A stretch of DNA of 64,000 bases, taken from the NCBI GenBank assembly GCA_963530135.1, contig CAUSBS010000003.1, forward strand, positions 40,373-104,372, written 5' to 3'. Source of the DNA: an uncultured Candidatus Saccharibacteria bacterium. Lineage in GTDB: Bacteria; Patescibacteriota; Saccharimonadia; Saccharimonadales; Saccharimonadaceae. Shown here piece after piece: positions 29,616-55,851 of this stretch. Position 1 is the first letter of the stretch. The number at the start of each line of letters is the position of its first letter. A program made the position numbers and the translations under genes. Under the pieces are notes generated by a model. That model was given only the letters and a program-made list of their open reading frames with translations. It was not told the DNA's origin and searched no databases.

Positions 29616-29707
29616 TGGCGGAAGGACGGGGATTCGAACCCCGGAGACCCCGTGAAGAGCCTACACACTTTCCAGGCGTGCCAGTTCAACCACTCCTGCA
29701 TCCTTCC
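29616..29707 (-). tRNA. tRNA-Ser(GGA), CCA encoded
   Basis: Hand fold: acceptor GGAAGGA, anticodon stem CACGC/GTGTG with loop CUGGAAA, long variable arm, T-arm CGGGGTTCGAATCCCCG. Confidence 0.85.
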
Positions 29708-38820: not shown

Positions 38821-39350
38821 TGAGCGAAAATGCCACATCAAAAAAATCAATTACCACCCACATTGTGCGCTGGCTTATTTACGGTCTGACGATTCTTGTT
38901 TTCGTGCTTGCAACTGCCCATAACGACCACCTACACAAGCTCAACTCCGACCAATTTGGTCCGCCTGACTATTATTATGACTATCATCTAAATGACTCCG
39001 CCTGGTTCATTATAGCTATGCTTATCACCCTACTGATGATTAAGCTAACGGACTGGTCAATTACCGCCGCCCACCACCGGAATCTGCGCAATCGATGGCC
39101 GCTTGTCATAACAGGCATCTTGTTTTACCTCACAATACTGATACTGCTCCTCGATGTGACAATCGGCGGGTGGGGCATCCCGGGGCGCTGCGGCAGCGGA
39201 TTTTCCACCGGTAACTGCTTTCTGGCTGATGGACTCGGGGAATTCGTATACCTGTTCTGTATGCCGCCGCTTTTCATCTGCGGAACATCTCTTATGATTA
39301 TCAATCGCCGCACCAAGTACCGCGAGAGCCGTAAAAAATCACTGCGATAG
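38820..39350 (+). CDS. hypothetical 4-TM membrane protein
   Basis: Four hydrophobic helices and a Cys-containing loop GRCGSGFSTGNC. The ATG overlaps the murF TGA by 1 nt. Confidence 0.5.
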   Translation: MSENATSKKSITTHIVRWLIYGLTILVFVLATAHNDHLHKLNSDQFGPPDYYYDYHLNDSAWFIIAMLITLLMIKLTDWSITAAHHRNLRNRWPLVITGILFYLTILILLLDVTIGGWGIPGRCGSGFSTGNCFLADGLGEFVYLFCMPPLFICGTSLMIINRRTKYRESRKKSLR

Positions 39351-39638
39351 CTTATAAAGGAACGCCAGCCAGAACAACGCCGCTACCGCGAGGCTACTGA
39401 ACGCACAGAGTTTATATACACCCCTCAGCCACACTACCATCCACACTCCCGCCGCCGACAGCAGCATCGGTAGCGCCATTGCTGCTATCTCAGTAACATG
39501 ATATTCACGAATCCACCACGTATCCCACCTCGCCACAACAAAGAGCAGCGCGCACAAAGCTATCGGTGCAACTACCAGCAAAATCACGACCGTATCGCTT
39601 AAATATGGCTTATCCGTCGTCGCTATATCGTCTTTCAT
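39339..39638 (-). CDS. hypothetical 3-TM membrane protein
   Basis: ORF made almost entirely of hydrophobic helices. Confidence 0.45.
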   Translation of the reverse strand: MKDDIATTDKPYLSDTVVILLVVAPIALCALLFVVARWDTWWIREYHVTEIAAMALPMLLSAAGVWMVVWLRGVYKLCAFSSLAVAALFWLAFLYKLSQ

Positions 39639-39791
39639 AACCTACCCTTCATGATAAATCGGCTGTGTTAGTTAATCAACCTATCACTGCGACCAAGTAG
39701 CCGCCAAATAGTAATGAAATCCCTTGGTCACATCCTTGAGGCTTTGACGTACTTGTTGACTATTCTTCACAATTAACCCCGTCAAGCTCCA

Positions 39792-40154
39792 TCAGCGATT
39801 CACTCTGAACAGCTGAATACTTGTCAATATTATAGCGACGATACCAACTATGAGTCCGGTTCTCGCCCAATTAAAAAGCCCTTCAAAACCACTCCCAAAC
39901 AAGGATGTCTGCAGCAGAAACAAAAATGACACGGGGATAAATAGCCATAAAATAGCCGCCAGATGTGAAAGTGGAAAATTCTTTCTTCTATTCGCAGAAG
40001 TAAACAATAATAACAGACTAATCACGGCGGCAATACATTCTATAATCAGCCCTATCTGATATGTATCACCTCGCACCACGAGTAACGGCATGGTAGCCAT
40101 AACGGCCGTCAATAATATATTCTGCGTTATCTTTATCTTTTTATTCTTTTTCAC
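39792..40154 (-). CDS. hypothetical 4-TM membrane protein
   Basis: Hydrophobic helices throughout. Its start lies 3 nt after the stop of the 59-aa ORF. Confidence 0.45.
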   Translation of the reverse strand: MKKNKKIKITQNILLTAVMATMPLLVVRGDTYQIGLIIECIAAVISLLLLFTSANRRKNFPLSHLAAILWLFIPVSFLFLLQTSLFGSGFEGLFNWARTGLIVGIVAIILTSIQLFRVNR

Positions 40155-40157
40155 AAC

Positions 40158-40337
40158 TTACCCCCCTTCGGTAGTGTACTTTACGAATCCTCGTAGCTTA
40201 TAGTCTTTTGCTCTAGGTTTGAGTGCTGGTGATAGATGGTCTTCTGGTTTTAGGGCGTAGCATTTTTCGCTTACGTCTTTGGCGAGAATAATTGGTGTTC
40301 CTTTTTTGATGTCACCACAATCTATTAACCAGATCAT
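40158..40337 (-). CDS. small ORF (59 aa) directly downstream of the Pnkp-like gene
   Basis: My translation is MIWLIDCGDIKKGTPIILAKDVSEKCYALKPEDHLSPALKPRAKDYKLRGFVKYTTEGG. A GGAG SD lies 5 nt upstream, and the gap after the Pnkp stop is 14 nt. Confidence 0.4.
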   Translation of the reverse strand: MIWLIDCGDIKKGTPIILAKDVSEKCYALKPEDHLSPALKPRAKDYKLRGFVKYTTEGG

Positions 40338-40351
40338 CGTACTCCACTAGC

Positions 40352-42508
40352 CTACTCAAACCGTCGCCGCAGCGTGATAATGTCCATCCGCGCTAAGTCC
40401 TCGGTGGGCAGCTGCCGCATATATTCAATTACCCGGGCTGCCAGCGCCGGATCAGGACAATCATCCCTGATTGACGGCTGCCGACCAGTCTGCAGTGCCG
40501 CCAGCGCTGTTCGCATCTGCCGCCAAAAGGTATAATAATCAAGCTTAATCTTGACGTGATGACCACCAGCATCTTCGAGCACAAAGCCCTCAACTCGCTC
40601 ACCCTGCCACCGATACGCCATGCCGTGAAGCTGGCCAAACCACGTCATAAACTCCCTCCACGACGAAAACTCCGCCGCCAGACGCTTGCTGTTCGCCCCG
40701 ATCTCGCGTGCAAATCGCTCCCGCTCCTGCCGATCGACCGCTTCGTATGCAACCTGACGCTTGACGATATCGAGCAGCACCAACTTGTCTGACTCATACG
40801 CGATAATATGCGGATCAAATCGCGGCAACACAACCTCAAACAATAGGCACGCATTATGACGGCGCAGATAATCAGTAATATACGGTAGTTTGTCTCGAAA
40901 TTGCTCCAAAAACTCTCGCCGAAAGGCTGCTGCATAGTCACCCTCGGTCGTCGACTTTGACGCGATCACCAACCCGCCCGCCGCCGAATCATACCCGACC
41001 AACCCCAAAAAGCCATTCTCCTTCACCCACGCCCGCACCGGAAAGGCCATCGTCTGCTCCAGTGCCGCTAGTTCAGTATCGCGCCGCTCGCCGATGTTAA
41101 AAAACTTATCATAGGCCCGAATCACGATTTCGTTTGTCAGCGTATTGAGAAACAGTCCGCGCGCTCGCATCGTCTGCGTCGTCCATGCTTGGCGATAAAA
41201 TGCCTCGGGCTTGAAATTAAACGAGCTGATATCACCCGGCAGAATTGATTCACGAATGTAGCGATTCTGCCGCAGCTGGCTTAGGAACGCTGCGTTTTCT
41301 GGATACAGCCGCGCTGCTGCCTGTTGATTTTGAATAGCGATCGGTGTCATGCCATTCTCGTCCAGCCGCACTGTTCGCAGCTCGCCGCCAAACTCAACCT
41401 TTCCCTCCAAATTGTAGCACCGTTCGTTGTACCGCGTAGGGTAATTTTGCCTATTGCGATGTCCATGAACCTGAAACGTCGCATCATCAGTCTGCGCCAT
41501 AAATGCATTATCCACCGCCCCAACCTCATCATACGCCCCCACGCCATGGATCAGCTGGCTGGTCGCCACCAATGGTAACCGCTCCGGCAGCATACTAAGT
41601 CCACCATGCGTCACCAACACTGTTTGCCCTCGAAATTGGTACAAAATATATTGATCCATCCGCCGCATCAGCCGTGCTACCTTACGCTTATCAATACCTG
41701 CCGCCTCCAGCTGTGGCTGCGTTTGTTCGCTAAATACCCGCGCCGCAACCGGCTGATCGGTTGCCCACTGCCAGAGATACAGCTCGTGATTACCCTCGAC
41801 GAACCGCACGTTTGGCCGGTCAAGCAACTCGTCACAAACAAATCGCATCACCGCATCATTCTCCGTGCCGCGATCTAATAGATCACCGACAAAAATATAC
41901 AGTTCATCATCCCGAAGCGGATACCGCTCGAAATATTCCTTCAGCGGCGTAAAGCACCCCTGCACATCGCCGATATGATGAATCGCCCGATACCTATCAA
42001 CGTTCTCTGGCTGATTGGTAAGCAGCTGATTCACCTCCTCAGCCGTCCGCACCACCGTCACCCATTTCGGCAGTGAACTTCGCTGCAGTCGCCGATGCAT
42101 ACGCTCAAGCACACTACTCGGCACCACCTTATGGCTCGGCCGCTCCCTGTTACGCTCTTGACACACCGCCAGCGGTACATCGGCAAAATCAATCACCACC
42201 AGCCGGTAGCGATATTTCCGACATAGCTCGCCGTACGTCTTGAAATAATTTGGCGTCGTGTGTGTTGCATCAACCACCGTCGTCTCACCCCGCGTCATCC
42301 GCTGCTCCAGCATCTCGTGTAATAGCCGCCACACCATTGCATCCTGACGCGACGGCATGGTCGTTTGTCCGTCAATCATCAGCTGCGGCGACGCCAGCAT
42401 CAGCCGTATCATGTCCGGCGACAGCGTATAATTATCAAGCCCCTGTTCCGCGAGAAACGTCGACTTACCAGAGCCGGGAATCCCTCTGGTTACCAGTAAC
42501 AGCCGCAT
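40352..42508 (-). CDS. trifunctional polynucleotide 5'-kinase / 2',3'-phosphatase / ligase-type nucleotidyltransferase (bacterial Pnkp-like RNA repair enzyme)
   Basis: P-loop GIPGSGKST. Calcineurin-type motifs GDVQGC, GDLLDRG, GNHE, THGG and HGH. Ligase motifs I VKENG, III LLFEVV, IV EGFVLE and V HVKIK. Confidence 0.7.
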   Translation of the reverse strand: MRLLLVTRGIPGSGKSTFLAEQGLDNYTLSPDMIRLMLASPQLMIDGQTTMPSRQDAMVWRLLHEMLEQRMTRGETTVVDATHTTPNYFKTYGELCRKYRYRLVVIDFADVPLAVCQERNRERPSHKVVPSSVLERMHRRLQRSSLPKWVTVVRTAEEVNQLLTNQPENVDRYRAIHHIGDVQGCFTPLKEYFERYPLRDDELYIFVGDLLDRGTENDAVMRFVCDELLDRPNVRFVEGNHELYLWQWATDQPVAARVFSEQTQPQLEAAGIDKRKVARLMRRMDQYILYQFRGQTVLVTHGGLSMLPERLPLVATSQLIHGVGAYDEVGAVDNAFMAQTDDATFQVHGHRNRQNYPTRYNERCYNLEGKVEFGGELRTVRLDENGMTPIAIQNQQAAARLYPENAAFLSQLRQNRYIRESILPGDISSFNFKPEAFYRQAWTTQTMRARGLFLNTLTNEIVIRAYDKFFNIGERRDTELAALEQTMAFPVRAWVKENGFLGLVGYDSAAGGLVIASKSTTEGDYAAAFRREFLEQFRDKLPYITDYLRRHNACLLFEVVLPRFDPHIIAYESDKLVLLDIVKRQVAYEAVDRQERERFAREIGANSKRLAAEFSSWREFMTWFGQLHGMAYRWQGERVEGFVLEDAGGHHVKIKLDYYTFWRQMRTALAALQTGRQPSIRDDCPDPALAARVIEYMRQLPTEDLARMDIITLRRRFE

Positions 42509-42511
42509 GCC

Positions 42512-43810
42512 TCACGCCGCCCGTTCCTGACCAACGATCTCGCGCACCACCTGACCATCATTCCACGGCAGCCGTTGACCATTGACGATCCGATATTGCT
42601 CGTGACCCATGCCGGTGATCAGCACCATATCGCCCTTCTTGGCGCAGCCAAGCGCTCGCTCAATCGCCTGGCGCCGGTCGGCAATTTCCGTCGTTTTCGC
42701 GTCGCCGCGACCGCGCTCAATTCCCTCCATCAACATTCGCCGGATTTGTTCTGGATCTTCGTTATAACTCTCCTCGTCAGTCAGGAAAATCCGATCCGCT
42801 CCACGCGCCGCGATCTCGCCCATAGTCGGTCGCTTGCCCTGATCACGATCACCACACGCCCCGAACACCAAGATCACCCGCTGCTTGGTGATGCCGCGGG
42901 CCGCCGCCAGCAGTTTTTCCAGCGCATCTGGCGTATGAGCATAATCAACGATCACATCATAGCCCAGGCCCTCGACCGCCCGCTCAAACCGCCCCGGCAC
43001 AGCCTCGACATTAGCCACCCCCTCCTGGATATCCTCCAGCTTAACGCCCAATAAATACGCCAGCGTCGTCGCAGCCGTCATGTTCATCACATTGAACTCG
43101 CCCGGCAGATTCGTCGCTAGCTCCAAATGCGTCTGATGATCCAGCACGACGTCGGCCTCGGTACCCTTGCGATACAACTTGACGTGGGTAATTTTTGCCT
43201 CAGCCTCGGCGCTTCGGCCATACGTCATCTTTTGCTCGCTGGCGACAAACTGATTGAAATAGTCATACCACTCATCGTCGCGATTGAGCACGATAAACCG
43301 TGGGCGCAGTTGGAAGAGTTTACTCTTGGCCGCGGCATACTCTTCCATCGTCTTGTGATAATCGAGGTGATCCTGCGTCAAATTCGTCATCACCGCCGCC
43401 TCAATCGGCACGCCGTCCAGCTTGTGCTGATCCAGCGCATGACTCGTCACCTCCAGCACCACATAGTCGGCGTTCGCCCGCTTGGCGTCGCGGAAAAACC
43501 GCTGCATCCGCGCCGTACTCGCCACTGTAGCATTGAGGTCGTTAAGTTTTCGCTCGCCCGCCACCTCGATCACCGCCGTGGTAAACATCGCCGTCGTGAA
43601 GTGAGCCTCTTTCAAAATCTCATTGATATAGCACGACGTTGTCGTCTTGCCATTCGTCCCCGTCACCGCGATCACCCTGAGGTGCTTTGACGGATTACCA
43701 TACCGCGCGCTAACCAGCTTGACGCGCAGCCGCCGATACCCATTCTCTAGCCACCGGAGCATCCCGACAGGCAACACTTTTCTCACAAACTTCACCAATA
43801 TGGCTTTCAT
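42512..43810 (-). CDS. murE: UDP-N-acetylmuramoyl-L-alanyl-D-glutamate--(diamino acid) ligase MurE, without the DNPR DAP-recognition motif
   Basis: Contains VTGTNGKTTT, EVTSHALDQHK and NLTQDHLDYH. The position of DNPR reads EESY (FLTDEESYNEDP). Confidence 0.85.
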   Translation of the reverse strand: MKAILVKFVRKVLPVGMLRWLENGYRRLRVKLVSARYGNPSKHLRVIAVTGTNGKTTTSCYINEILKEAHFTTAMFTTAVIEVAGERKLNDLNATVASTARMQRFFRDAKRANADYVVLEVTSHALDQHKLDGVPIEAAVMTNLTQDHLDYHKTMEEYAAAKSKLFQLRPRFIVLNRDDEWYDYFNQFVASEQKMTYGRSAEAEAKITHVKLYRKGTEADVVLDHQTHLELATNLPGEFNVMNMTAATTLAYLLGVKLEDIQEGVANVEAVPGRFERAVEGLGYDVIVDYAHTPDALEKLLAAARGITKQRVILVFGACGDRDQGKRPTMGEIAARGADRIFLTDEESYNEDPEQIRRMLMEGIERGRGDAKTTEIADRRQAIERALGCAKKGDMVLITGMGHEQYRIVNGQRLPWNDGQVVREIVGQERAA

Positions 43811-49797: not shown

Positions 49798-49890
49798 TGG
49801 CGGAGGAGGGGAGATTCGAACTCCCGCTACAGGTCTCCCCGTACTAACGATTTAGCAAACCGTCCCCTTCAGCCACTTGGGTACTCCTCC
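49798..49890 (-). tRNA. tRNA-Ser(GCU), CCA encoded
   Basis: Hand fold: acceptor GGAGGAG, anticodon loop UUGCUAA, long variable arm, T-arm GGGAGTTCGAATCTCCC. Confidence 0.85.
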
Positions 49891-51077: not shown

Positions 51078-51154
51078 GCACCCGTAGCTCAGCTGGATAG
51101 AGCGTTGGCTTGCGGAGCCAAAGGTCGTACGTTCGAATCGTGCCGGGTGTACCA
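51078..51154 (+). tRNA. tRNA-Arg(GCG), CCA encoded
   Basis: Hand fold: GCACCCG acceptor, D-arm GCTCAGCTGGATAGAGC, anticodon loop UUGCGGA, T-arm GTACGTTCGAATCGTGC. Confidence 0.8.
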
Positions 51155-51166
51155 CATTAGCTTTAT

Positions 51167-51254
51167 GGAGAGATGCAGGAGTGGTTGAACTGGCCGCTCT
51201 CGAAAAGCGGTATGGGGCAACCCATCGAGGGTTCGAATCCCTCTCTCTCCGCCA
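51167..51254 (+). tRNA. tRNA-Ser(CGA), CCA encoded
   Basis: Hand fold: anticodon stem CCGCT/AGCGG with loop CUCGAAA, and a long variable arm. Confidence 0.85.
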
Positions 51255-51277
51255 GAATCCAGTCGCTACGATTAATT

Positions 51278-51367
51278 GGAAGGGTGACCGAGTGGTTGAA
51301 GGTACCGGTCTTGAAAACCGGCGTGCGGTAACACGTACCGAGGGTTCGAATCCCTCCCCTTCCGCCA
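51278..51367 (+). tRNA. tRNA-Ser(UGA), CCA encoded
   Basis: Hand fold: anticodon stem CCGGT/ACCGG with loop CUUGAAA, and a long variable arm. Confidence 0.85.
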
Positions 51368-55773: not shown

Positions 55774-55851
55774 GCGCCCGTAGTGAAGTTGGCCTATCAC
55801 GCCTCCCTGTCACGGAGGAGATCGCCGGTTCGAATCCGGTCGGGCGCGCCA
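55774..55851 (+). tRNA. tRNA-Asp(GUC), CCA encoded
   Basis: Hand fold: GCGCCCG acceptor, anticodon stem CCTCC/GGAGG with loop CUGUCAC, T-arm GCCGGTTCGAATCCGGT. Confidence 0.88.

Follow-up and report, generated by a model that had tools for sequence, protein, structure and literature searches.

A predicted three-step RNA repair enzyme with a Trl1-type ligase in Saccharibacteria and phages, and a natural active-site change in its chromosomal clade

In the conflicts of phages with their hosts and of bacteria with one another, RNA heal-and-seal enzymes counteract ribotoxins and anticodon nucleases. In bacteriophage T4, repair by Pnkp and Rnl1 counters the anticodon nuclease PrrC. In the bacterial Pnkp/Hen1 system the Rnl4 ligase of Pnkp lacks a competent partner domain and depends on the N-domain of Hen1, so that Pnkp needs Hen1. 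The ligase of the fungal tRNA-splicing enzyme Trl1 belongs to the Rnl6 clade, which to our knowledge has so far been described in fungi and suggested in kinetoplastids. Here these systems are compared with a gene found in a 64,000-nucleotide stretch (the window) of an uncultured Candidatus Saccharibacteria bacterium (GenBank assembly GCA_963530135.1, contig CAUSBS010000003.1, positions 40,373 to 104,372 of the forward strand). The gene, complete and located on the minus strand at 40352-42508 of the window, encodes a protein of 718 amino acids (aa) that will be referred to as KPL (kinase-phosphoesterase-ligase), a name coined in this report for the family of PHROG 8238. Judging from homology and conservation, KPL can be regarded with good confidence as an enzyme that heals and seals broken RNA autonomously; the family to which it belongs is large and uncharacterised. 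What is catalogued merely as 'RNA ligase' would be a self-sufficient three-step repair enzyme, and its sealing module would correspond, in bacteria and phages, to the tRNA-splicing ligase of fungi.

The reading frame runs uninterrupted over 718 codons from an ATG start, and its product shows three Pfam domains in the order AAA_33 (residues 4-143, E 7.9e-22), Metallophos (176-350, E 2e-13) and RNA_lig_T4_1 (449-659, E 5e-37), as well as a full-length match to phrog_8238 'RNA ligase' (E 2e-196, residues 1-717 on positions 1-729 of 737). The N-terminal module, a predicted P-loop 5'-OH polynucleotide kinase (aa 1-165; 42014-42508, minus strand as are all parts of the gene), contains the P-loop GIPGSGKST at residues 9-17 (42458-42484) and the pair D32/R35 (42404-42415). 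It is followed by a central binuclear metallophosphoesterase module (aa 170-395; 41324-42001) with the motifs GDVQG (residues 180-184; 41957-41971), GDLLDRG (41867-41887), GNHE (41783-41794), THGG (41600-41611) and HGHR (41456-41467). The C-terminal module, a putative ATP-dependent RNA ligase of the Trl1-LIG (Rnl6) type (aa 400-718; 40355-41311), includes motif I KENG (496-499), motif III FEVV (557-560; 40829-40840), motif IV EGFVLE (640-645; 40574-40591) and motif V VKIK (652-655; 40544-40555), Lys496 (41021-41023) being the predicted adenylylation site. An earlier note on this DNA, made from the sequence alone, had described the three modules in this order and quoted the four ligase motifs, and both statements were borne out by Pfam and by translation. 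Based on 25 homologues, AlphaFold2 gave a model of high confidence along the entire chain (mean pLDDT 92.3). Among six orthologues of about 94-95% identity the dN/dS ratio is 0.09-0.15, compared with 0.02-0.04 for the neighbouring murE, and the G+C content of the gene (0.546; third positions 0.61) lies close to that of murE (0.573; 0.70) and somewhat above the window mean (0.506). The gene is real and is maintained under purifying selection.

The closest solved relative of the kinase module is the kinase domain of Clostridium thermocellum Pnkp, CthPnkp (4jst, E 1.3e-9; Foldseek TM 0.71-0.74), and its residues K15, D32 and R35 are invariant or nearly so across the family. The succession of kinase, binuclear metallophosphoesterase and adenylyltransferase is also that of Pnkp, and the Pnkp equivalog TIGR04075 is the top NCBIfam match of KPL. 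However, the cut-off of this equivalog is 750 bits and KPL scores 99.2, with an alignment of residues 4-394 to profile positions 10-415 of 851 that ends before the ligase, and the Pnkp ligase structure (4e6n/4drf) appeared neither among the 50 best Foldseek matches nor among the PDB sequence matches of KPL. KPL is thus no orthologue of Pnkp, since it falls short of the NCBIfam cut-off, matches only part of the profile and has a ligase that is not Pnkp-like in fold. The bacterial Pnkp architecture proposed in the earlier note holds for the order of domains and fails for Pnkp identity, and the comparison with C. thermocellum Pnkp that it had recommended found the kinase nearest to that enzyme and a ligase that is not Pnkp-like.

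Pfam detected no Hen1 or other methyltransferase family in the nine flanking open reading frames (ORFs), in agreement with the earlier observation, and where homologues occur in other Saccharibacteria, in Actinomycetaceae and in phages, no methyltransferase was seen among the genes called nearby; a motif screen of 62 window ORFs, a weak test, gave no class-I S-adenosylmethionine motif, and the search did not extend to the rest of the genome. This absence had been taken as an anomaly, yet it is expected, since the ligase of KPL carries its own Trl1-like C-domain, and KPL is predicted to need no Hen1.

The assignment of the ligase module relies on several comparisons that agree with each other. 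In a sequence search of the PDB, Trl1-LIG was its best solved match (E 7.6e-13), and in the Foldseek search with the KPL model six Trl1-LIG entries came first (E 8e-19 to 1e-15, TM 0.66-0.70; alignments of 350-368 columns on targets of 383-395 residues), followed by T4 Rnl1 (E 3e-12, TM 0.56). The lysine-adenylylation fold that the earlier note had expected is therefore found in the predicted C-terminal domain, with Trl1-LIG as the best fold match. A profile constructed from eleven ligase domains of the KPL family matched Candida glabrata Trl1 with an E value of 4.4e-33 (query 32-325 on chain 39-352) and Chaetomium Trl1 with an E value of 3.3e-26, reaching chain residue 396 in a protein in which the C-domain spans 328-406, while its match to T4 Rnl1 (E 2.5e-9) was confined to the N-terminal half of the adenylyltransferase (query 54-193). 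Likewise, the hhalign alignment of the KPL ligase with T4 Rnl1 (probability 96.6%) ends at T4 residue 256, and from the extent of both alignments the C-terminal tRNA-specificity domain of Rnl1 is absent from KPL. The layout of the Trl1 holoenzyme (ligase, GTP-dependent kinase and 2H cyclic phosphodiesterase) is also not that of KPL, in which Pfam detected no 2H domain.

An all-helical C-terminal domain is the trait that defines Trl1-LIG as the Rnl6 clade according to Banerjee et al. (PMC6379707). Profile alignment, Foldseek and the model all place such a domain in KPL (aa 657-718; 40355-40540), homologous to the Trl1 C-domain and modelled with helices at 657-673, 687-698, 702-707 and 710-717. 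Ligase motifs I, III, IV and V were aligned by HMMER with those of Chaetomium and are invariant in the family. Considering sequence and modelled fold together, the KPL ligase is clearly of the fungal Trl1 (Rnl6) type, with a C-terminal helical domain of its own.

Trl1-LIG binds, in the Chaetomium enzyme, a sulfate that mimics a terminal 2'-phosphate (2'-PO4) by means of His227, located nine residues past the Glu of motif III, and Arg334 and Arg337, which form an RxxR right behind motif V; mutations of these residues slow RNA adenylylation 60- to 580-fold (PMC11404444). The Arg pair mediates the preference of Trl1 for 2'-PO4 ends, which T4 Rnl1 cannot seal (PMC12440814). The corresponding triad is found in KPL, where E558 is followed at +9 by H567 (40808-40810) and K655 by W-R663-Q-M-R666 (40511-40525), the latter aligned by HMMER with YR334QWR337 of Chaetomium. 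Alignments of 277 and 146 homologues show no variation at H567 and R666 and either K or R at position 663; the Asn of motif I, a further sulfate ligand in Trl1, is invariant across the family. T4 Rnl1 has a gap at the position of the Trl1 His and reads KEDG in motif I (hhalign).

With respect to the phosphoesterase module, the nearest solved relatives by sequence are ApaH and lambda phosphatase, the Pnkp phosphatase being more distant, and by fold Foldseek places lambda phosphatase at TM 0.67 and the phosphatase of CthPnkp at TM 0.64, so that the two are about equally close. Gln183 (codon 41960-41962) sits at the metal-ligand His of DxH, equivalent to His189 of CthPnkp and His22 of lambda phosphatase; translation confirmed the DVQG in place of DxHG to which the earlier note had drawn attention. 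Across the 277-sequence family alignment the residue is Gln in 127 members and His in 150, and in a set composed of the window protein and 145 cluster representatives at 50% identity (146 sequences) it is His in 101, Gln in 43, Arg in one and Asn in one. Position 183 excepted, the catalytic residues of all modules show little or no variation, both in the 277 homologues and in the set of 146, and the remaining metal and phosphate ligands of the phosphoesterase are invariant in the 277. When mapped on a neighbour-joining tree built from 186 non-redundant sequences, the H/Q split is explained by a single parsimony change. D181, D209, R213, N240, H241, H301, H348 and H350 are invariant in all 127 sequences of the Gln clade, which includes pairs only about 40-57% identical, and Gln183 is itself 100% conserved there.

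Because the two sides of a deep split are each completely fixed for their residue, in an active site that is otherwise invariant, the H/Q state, as read from this conservation, is a selected functional state and not decay. Nor is the substitution an idiosyncratic loss, the Gln being fixed in a whole clade. The Gln clade is chromosomal and comprises Saccharibacteria, Actinomycetaceae, Verrucomicrobiota and others, and all phage and viral members examined have His, none Gln. Besides position 183, only residues 83, 84 and 494 are fixed differently between the two clades. In the kinase, positions 83/84 read H-T in members with Gln183 and N-S in those with His, and residue 494, two positions before the ligase Lys, is W in the Gln clade and Y in the His clade. 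These differences may reflect co-adaptation or simply shared ancestry.

The consequences of replacing this His have been studied in CthPnkp, where His189 ligates one Mn2+ (PMC3675462). The phosphomonoesterase activity needs this residue and the phosphodiesterase activity, which depends on Mn2+, does not; H189D, H189A and H189E are diesterase-only enzymes (PMC1920235, PMC2190708). H189D converts 2',3'-cyclic phosphate to 2'-phosphate and redirects tRNA repair from T4 Rnl1 to yeast Trl1 (PMC1920235, PMC2190708).

Taken together, these observations suggest a repair reaction in three steps. The N-terminal Pnkp-like kinase would phosphorylate the 5'-OH end of a broken RNA, the two-metal phosphoesterase of the lambda-phosphatase/ApaH type would open the 2',3'-cyclic phosphate at the other end, and the C-terminal ATP-dependent ligase, adenylylated on Lys496, would join the healed ends. 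Defence against ribotoxins, the role suggested in the earlier note, is plausible. The likely substrates would be tRNAs or further RNAs of translation that have been cleaved by ribotoxins, for instance by anticodon nucleases, by RNases of toxin-antitoxin systems or by contact-dependent toxins, but they are a guess, given that KPL is linked to no gene for defence or for a toxin that damages RNA, and to no tRNA cluster. By analogy with T4, the phage KPLs probably undo the cleavage of host tRNAs, and the KPL of Saccharibacteria could plausibly protect their own tRNAs or rRNA from ribotoxins of the oral biofilm and of their Actinomycetaceae hosts. The gene is kept by many species of the ultra-small, host-dependent Saccharibacteria, and a genome of the Actinomycetaceae, the host lineage, has a related copy; since both keep KPL, RNA damage seems to be a real selective pressure in this symbiosis.

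Several points weigh against a three-step repair enzyme in the sense proposed here. To the absence of linked toxin, tRNA or defence genes it must be added that no assay of any KPL member is described in the searchable literature, and that PADLOC gave a weak P-loop match for KPL and no match to a defence system, for which reason membership in anti-phage defence was rejected. The most direct objection comes from CthPnkp itself, in which H189Q abolished the phosphomonoesterase and left a cyclic phosphodiesterase activity below the 17% kept by H189A (PMC2190708, PMC3675462); H189N was also weaker than H189A in this activity (PMC2190708). As CthPnkp H189Q is poorly active, the 3'-healing step of the Gln clade could, by analogy, be weak or different.

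A more specific version of this repair scheme can be put forward tentatively, as a possibility that is rather doubtful at present: the Gln-type KPLs, and perhaps the whole family, would run the fungal/plant type of 2'-PO4 repair in bacteria. The phosphoesterase would stop after opening the cyclic phosphate, since the His for the monoesterase step is gone, leaving 3'-OH/2'-PO4 ends; these would be the preferred ends of a Trl1-like ligase with the His-Lys/Arg-Arg pocket, and the 2'-PO4 at the junction would later be removed by a Tpt1/KptA phosphotransferase. This is consistent with the conserved triad, with an H/Q split that is single and fixed, and with the mutational data on H189 of CthPnkp (PMC1920235, PMC2190708). 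The natural change affects the same active-site His that was engineered in Shuman's laboratory to switch Pnkp from phage-type to yeast-type repair, and here it is joined to a yeast-type ligase. Moreover, in a Bacteroidaceae metagenome-assembled genome (MAG) the KPL gene overlaps a Tpt1 gene (PF01885, E 9.4e-43) by 4 nt, within the row IleRS - KPL - Tpt1/KptA - DEAD-box helicase - PGI (locus L066, 2800-11677 of CAVDRP010000010.1; L numbers designate the loci fetched).

On the other side, the linkage of KPL with Tpt1 in L066, a chromosomal one, has no second example in the loci fetched around KPL genes, and the KPL of L066 is of the His type. A tblastn search with E. coli KptA found Tpt1 neither in the window nor in the other fetched KPL loci, no KPL lay within 10 kb in any of 80 Tpt1 loci of IMG/VR, and in GenBank the host genera of phages with Tpt1 (jumbo phages of Erwinia, Dickeya and Klebsiella, and Clostridioides phages) do not overlap with those of phages with KPL. 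The poor activity of H189Q (PMC2190708) counts here too, as does the fact that Chaetomium LIG prefers 2'-PO4 without strictly requiring it. If 2'-PO4 repair does occur, RNA junctions with a 2'-PO4 would have in KPL their first known source in bacteria. The widespread bacterial Tpt1/KptA, whose purpose is a long-standing question, would thereby have a substrate, and an origin in phages or bacteria would be indicated for the ligase of eukaryotic tRNA splicing. As a separate observation, viral Tpt1/KptA genes (L170-L249, e.g., L176 6006-13859) occur among genes of NAD+ salvage (NAMPT, PRPP-synthetase-like, NAD synthase) and not beside RNA ligases, which hints at a role of viral Tpt1 that is centred on NAD rather than on RNA repair.

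Homologues of KPL are numerous. A word-indexed search retrieved more than 2400, the top 120 of which have the three Pfam domains and about 720-750 aa; few of these 120 are named, and those few bear the name 'RNA ligase' and come from MAGs of Saccharimonadales, Actinomycetaceae and Verrucomicrobiae. When 1.84 billion cluster representatives were searched exhaustively, 959 clusters (50% identity) reached E<=1e-30, of which the best 150 are mostly full-length matches of about 720-760 aa. Full-length KPL is present in 113 GenBank phage records, among them Staphylococcus Twortvirinae, SPbeta-like Bacillus phages and phages of Lactobacillus and Alicyclobacillus, at identities not exceeding about 42%, and IMG/VR contains 510 relatives at 42% identity or less. 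Annotations of the phage proteins ('RNA ligase', 'polynucleotide kinase', 'phosphatase', 'hypothetical') are based on homology alone. A ligase-only phage version of 314 aa also exists (BFVD A0A8S5TYL2, TM 0.88; phrog_21952). In 185,579 species genomes 299 matching stretches were found, and most of the best 80 belong to Saccharibacteria. The closest relatives of the window gene are chromosomal genes of this group, in at least 50 species-representative genomes, and the nearest genomes are those of oral Saccharibacteria (TM7/Nanosynbacter), including the complete 856-kb genome CP128407.1 ('oral taxon 488') with 94% protein identity. As delineated by these searches, KPL is a large and architecturally uniform family of large Firmicutes phages, many Saccharibacteria and a few other bacteria. 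It is a family already catalogued yet uncharacterised, in which an unstudied combination of modules coincides with a natural active-site switch. No description of the KPL fusion or of bacterial or phage Rnl6 ligases was found in the literature searched, which does not include Burroughs & Aravind 2016 (NAR 44:8525), the likeliest prior computational mention.

A Gln-type KPL is also encoded in an Actinomycetaceae MAG (L041 / L084 8001-10220, JAUMUM010000001.1, a 437-kb contig), with 56% identity to the genes of Saccharibacteria. Actinomycetaceae are the host lineage of oral Saccharibacteria, and this copy, in a high-GC genome, is fully adapted in its composition (GC 0.66, GC3 0.92). The distribution suggests gene exchange between the epibiont and host lineages.

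The family's presence in phages raises the question of whether the window gene is a recently acquired phage counter-defence gene or a prophage remnant with no role in the bacterium, its true function being to reverse, in phages, the damage done by host anticodon nucleases, as in T4. Membership in a PHROG family, with full-length copies in 113 GenBank phages and 510 stretches of IMG/VR, and the patchy cellular distribution would favour such an origin, which is nevertheless quite unlikely for this gene. Even the best phage match is only about 42% identical, all phage and viral members examined are of the His type, the Gln clade is chromosomal, the gene stands among housekeeping genes (murE, murF-like, tsaD, valS) in a position kept over L001-L011, its composition fits the neighbourhood and its dN/dS ratio is about 0.1.

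The homology of the ligase to the eukaryotic tRNA-splicing ligase over its whole length might indicate instead that KPL is a splicing ligase that joins exons once insertions in rRNA or tRNA genes have been cut out by a protein enzyme, as Trl1 does in tRNA splicing. Insertions in rRNA genes of the candidate phyla radiation have been reported, and among cellular genomes the family is strongly over-represented in Saccharibacteria. This function is very improbable, however: the gene is absent from most lineages with genomes of Saccharibacteria size and occurs in phages and Firmicutes, which lack such introns, and in the window no intron was reported in the six tRNA genes, no rRNA gene is present and no splicing endonuclease is linked.

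Very little credence can likewise be given to a phosphoesterase that in the Gln clade is dead or repurposed for RNA binding or regulation, which would leave KPL as a kinase-ligase that seals ends with 3'-OH. The loss of monoesterase and of most diesterase activity in CthPnkp H189Q and H189N would agree with it, but the other ligands are invariant in the 127 Gln-clade sequences and the Gln itself is fully conserved, as in an active site under selection. Finally, that KPL represents the known Pnkp/Hen1 system, with Hen1 lost or encoded elsewhere, is hardly tenable, as the shared domain order, the CthPnkp-like kinase and the top rank of TIGR04075 are outweighed by a sub-threshold partial match, a ligase that is Trl1-like by sequence and fold, a phosphatase nearer to ApaH and lambda phosphatase by sequence, and neighbourhoods that contain no methyltransferase here or in the other lineages examined. 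The autonomous three-step repair enzyme is therefore preferred.

The genomic context is that of a housekeeping region, in which KPL has murE, a murF-like ligase, tsaD, a FemAB-like protein and valS as neighbours. The upstream neighbour is murE (42512-43810, minus strand; TIGR01085, E 1.4e-123), which is not a functional part of the repair enzyme and ends in a TGA that is separated from the ATG of KPL by the three nucleotides ggc, in line with the 3-nt distance given in the earlier note. A promoter-like site lies upstream of murE (43873-43846) and none between murE and KPL; such sites number 16 against a mean of 6.3 in shuffled sequence, and terminator-like sites are no commoner than in shuffles. 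Owing to the 3-nt gap and to the lack of a promoter-like site in between, co-transcription of KPL with murE is likely in this lineage. The adjacency is confined to L001-L011, which are the closest relatives and one lineage of 66% identity, and a functional link with murE was rejected as a general property; the murE operon setting of the earlier note stands for this locus and not beyond it. In a large group of oral Saccharibacteria with 57% identity KPL is located between a polysaccharide deacetylase and an ArsP permease, in the Actinomycetaceae MAG between an acetyltransferase and an aldolase, and in SPbeta-like, Alicyclobacillus and Staphylococcus phages it occurs alone, with neighbours all annotated as 'hypothetical'. 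Because the neighbours in three other lineages and in phages are unrelated, KPL is a stand-alone unit and its linkage with murE is historical. MurE itself is short in the window (432 aa), its TIGR01085 match starting at profile position 68, and shows no match to the Pfam N-terminal Mur ligase domain.

Downstream, 14 nt with a GGAG separate the TAG stop of KPL from the start codon, ATG, of a 59-aa ORF (40158-40337, minus strand), the GGAG-ATG spacing being 4 nt. A 120-aa ORF, by inspection a four-span membrane protein, begins 3 nt past the stop of this small ORF. This arrangement of a small ORF with its own Shine-Dalgarno sequence followed by a membrane protein with four transmembrane segments had been described correctly, and the 59-aa protein had been proposed as a candidate activator of the ligase domain. 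From about position 9 onwards, however, it matches the C-terminal ~50 residues of a 1070-aa protein of L006 (8233-11445) with a Pfam Lipase_GDSL_2 domain (E 5.6e-14; GDSL-lipase/SGNH), the gene of which is intact downstream of KPL in L001 and L005-L010. Blastn of window 39700-40500 against the related loci revealed a deletion of ~3.08 kb (L005 8166-11244), replaced by 27 nt at 40317-40343 (minus strand) and common to the window and L003. The 59-aa ORF is thus the relic 3' end of the GDSL-lipase-like gene and not part of the repair enzyme; it is absent beside KPL in L011 and in all more distant loci, and a role as ligase partner was ruled out.

Some further features of this region deserve mention. 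The 1070-aa protein is of a secreted type, GDSL-lipase/SGNH-like, and its C-terminal peptide motif KPED.LSPALKPG.KDYK.RG recurs in a second ORF of L006 (12624-12893). Between KPL and the murF-like gene there is a variable island of paralogous multi-span membrane proteins of 95-120 aa (window 39339-40154; L006 11435-13236), the copy number of which varies between close genomes and which gave no Pfam, PHROG or PADLOC match. At the scale of the window, the GC skew is about -0.2 from position 1 to ~46 kb and then near zero or slightly positive, and gene orientation turns from mostly minus to mostly plus at ~44.5 kb. The six tRNA genes (29616-29707, 49798-49890, 51078-51367, 55774-55851) include four tRNA-Ser (GGA, GCU, CGA, UGA), of which Ser(GGA) is an ARAGORN call below the Rfam gathering score.

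Regarding known systems, the phage 'RNA ligase' proteins of PHROG 8238 belong to the same family as KPL, share its three-domain architecture over the full length at 34-42% identity and differ from the window protein by the His in DxH among the members examined. Pnkp/Hen1 of C. thermocellum (TIGR04075/TIGR04074) has in common with KPL the order kinase-metallophosphoesterase-ligase on one chain and a kinase that is the closest solved relative of the KPL kinase; in contrast, the ligase is Rnl4 in Pnkp and Trl1-like in KPL, no Hen1 partner is seen for KPL, which is ~130 aa shorter, the DxH histidine is Gln, and the equivalog score, 99 bits, is far below the cut-off of 750.

T4 Pnkp and Rnl1 resemble KPL in their overall logic, by which a kinase acts on the 5' end, the 3' end is healed and single-stranded RNA ends are sealed with ATP, in the association with phages and in the adenylyltransferase core, which is Rnl1-like in the KPL ligase. 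They are, unlike KPL, two proteins with a phosphatase of the DxDxT (HAD) type, and the unrelated C-domain of Rnl1 makes the match end after motif V; Rnl1 has Asp for Asn in motif I, lacks the Trl1 His and does not seal 2'-PO4 ends (PMC12440814).

Trl1 (Chaetomium thermophilum 6n0v/6n67/8rbj, Candida glabrata 9qw7) gives the best match over the whole ligase module, with an identity of ~21-24%, and shares with it the N sub-domain, the motifs KENG, III, EGFV and V, the all-helical C-domain, the residues that bind the 2'-PO4 mimic and the Asn of motif I. It is, however, a eukaryotic enzyme of the order ligase-kinase-CPD (cyclic phosphodiesterase), whereas KPL has the order kinase-phosphoesterase-ligase; its kinase is GTP-specific, that of KPL being nearest to the Pnkp kinase, and its 3' end healing depends on a 2H cyclic phosphodiesterase, a step that KPL would carry out with a binuclear metallophosphoesterase module. 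The engineered CthPnkp H189D (Keppetipola, Nandakumar & Shuman 2007, PMC1920235) has the same metal-ligand His replaced, by Asp and not by the Gln that is the natural residue of KPL, and its product with 3'-OH/2'-PO4 ends is sealed by the yeast Trl1 ligase, the type of ligase that in KPL is fused to the same chain.

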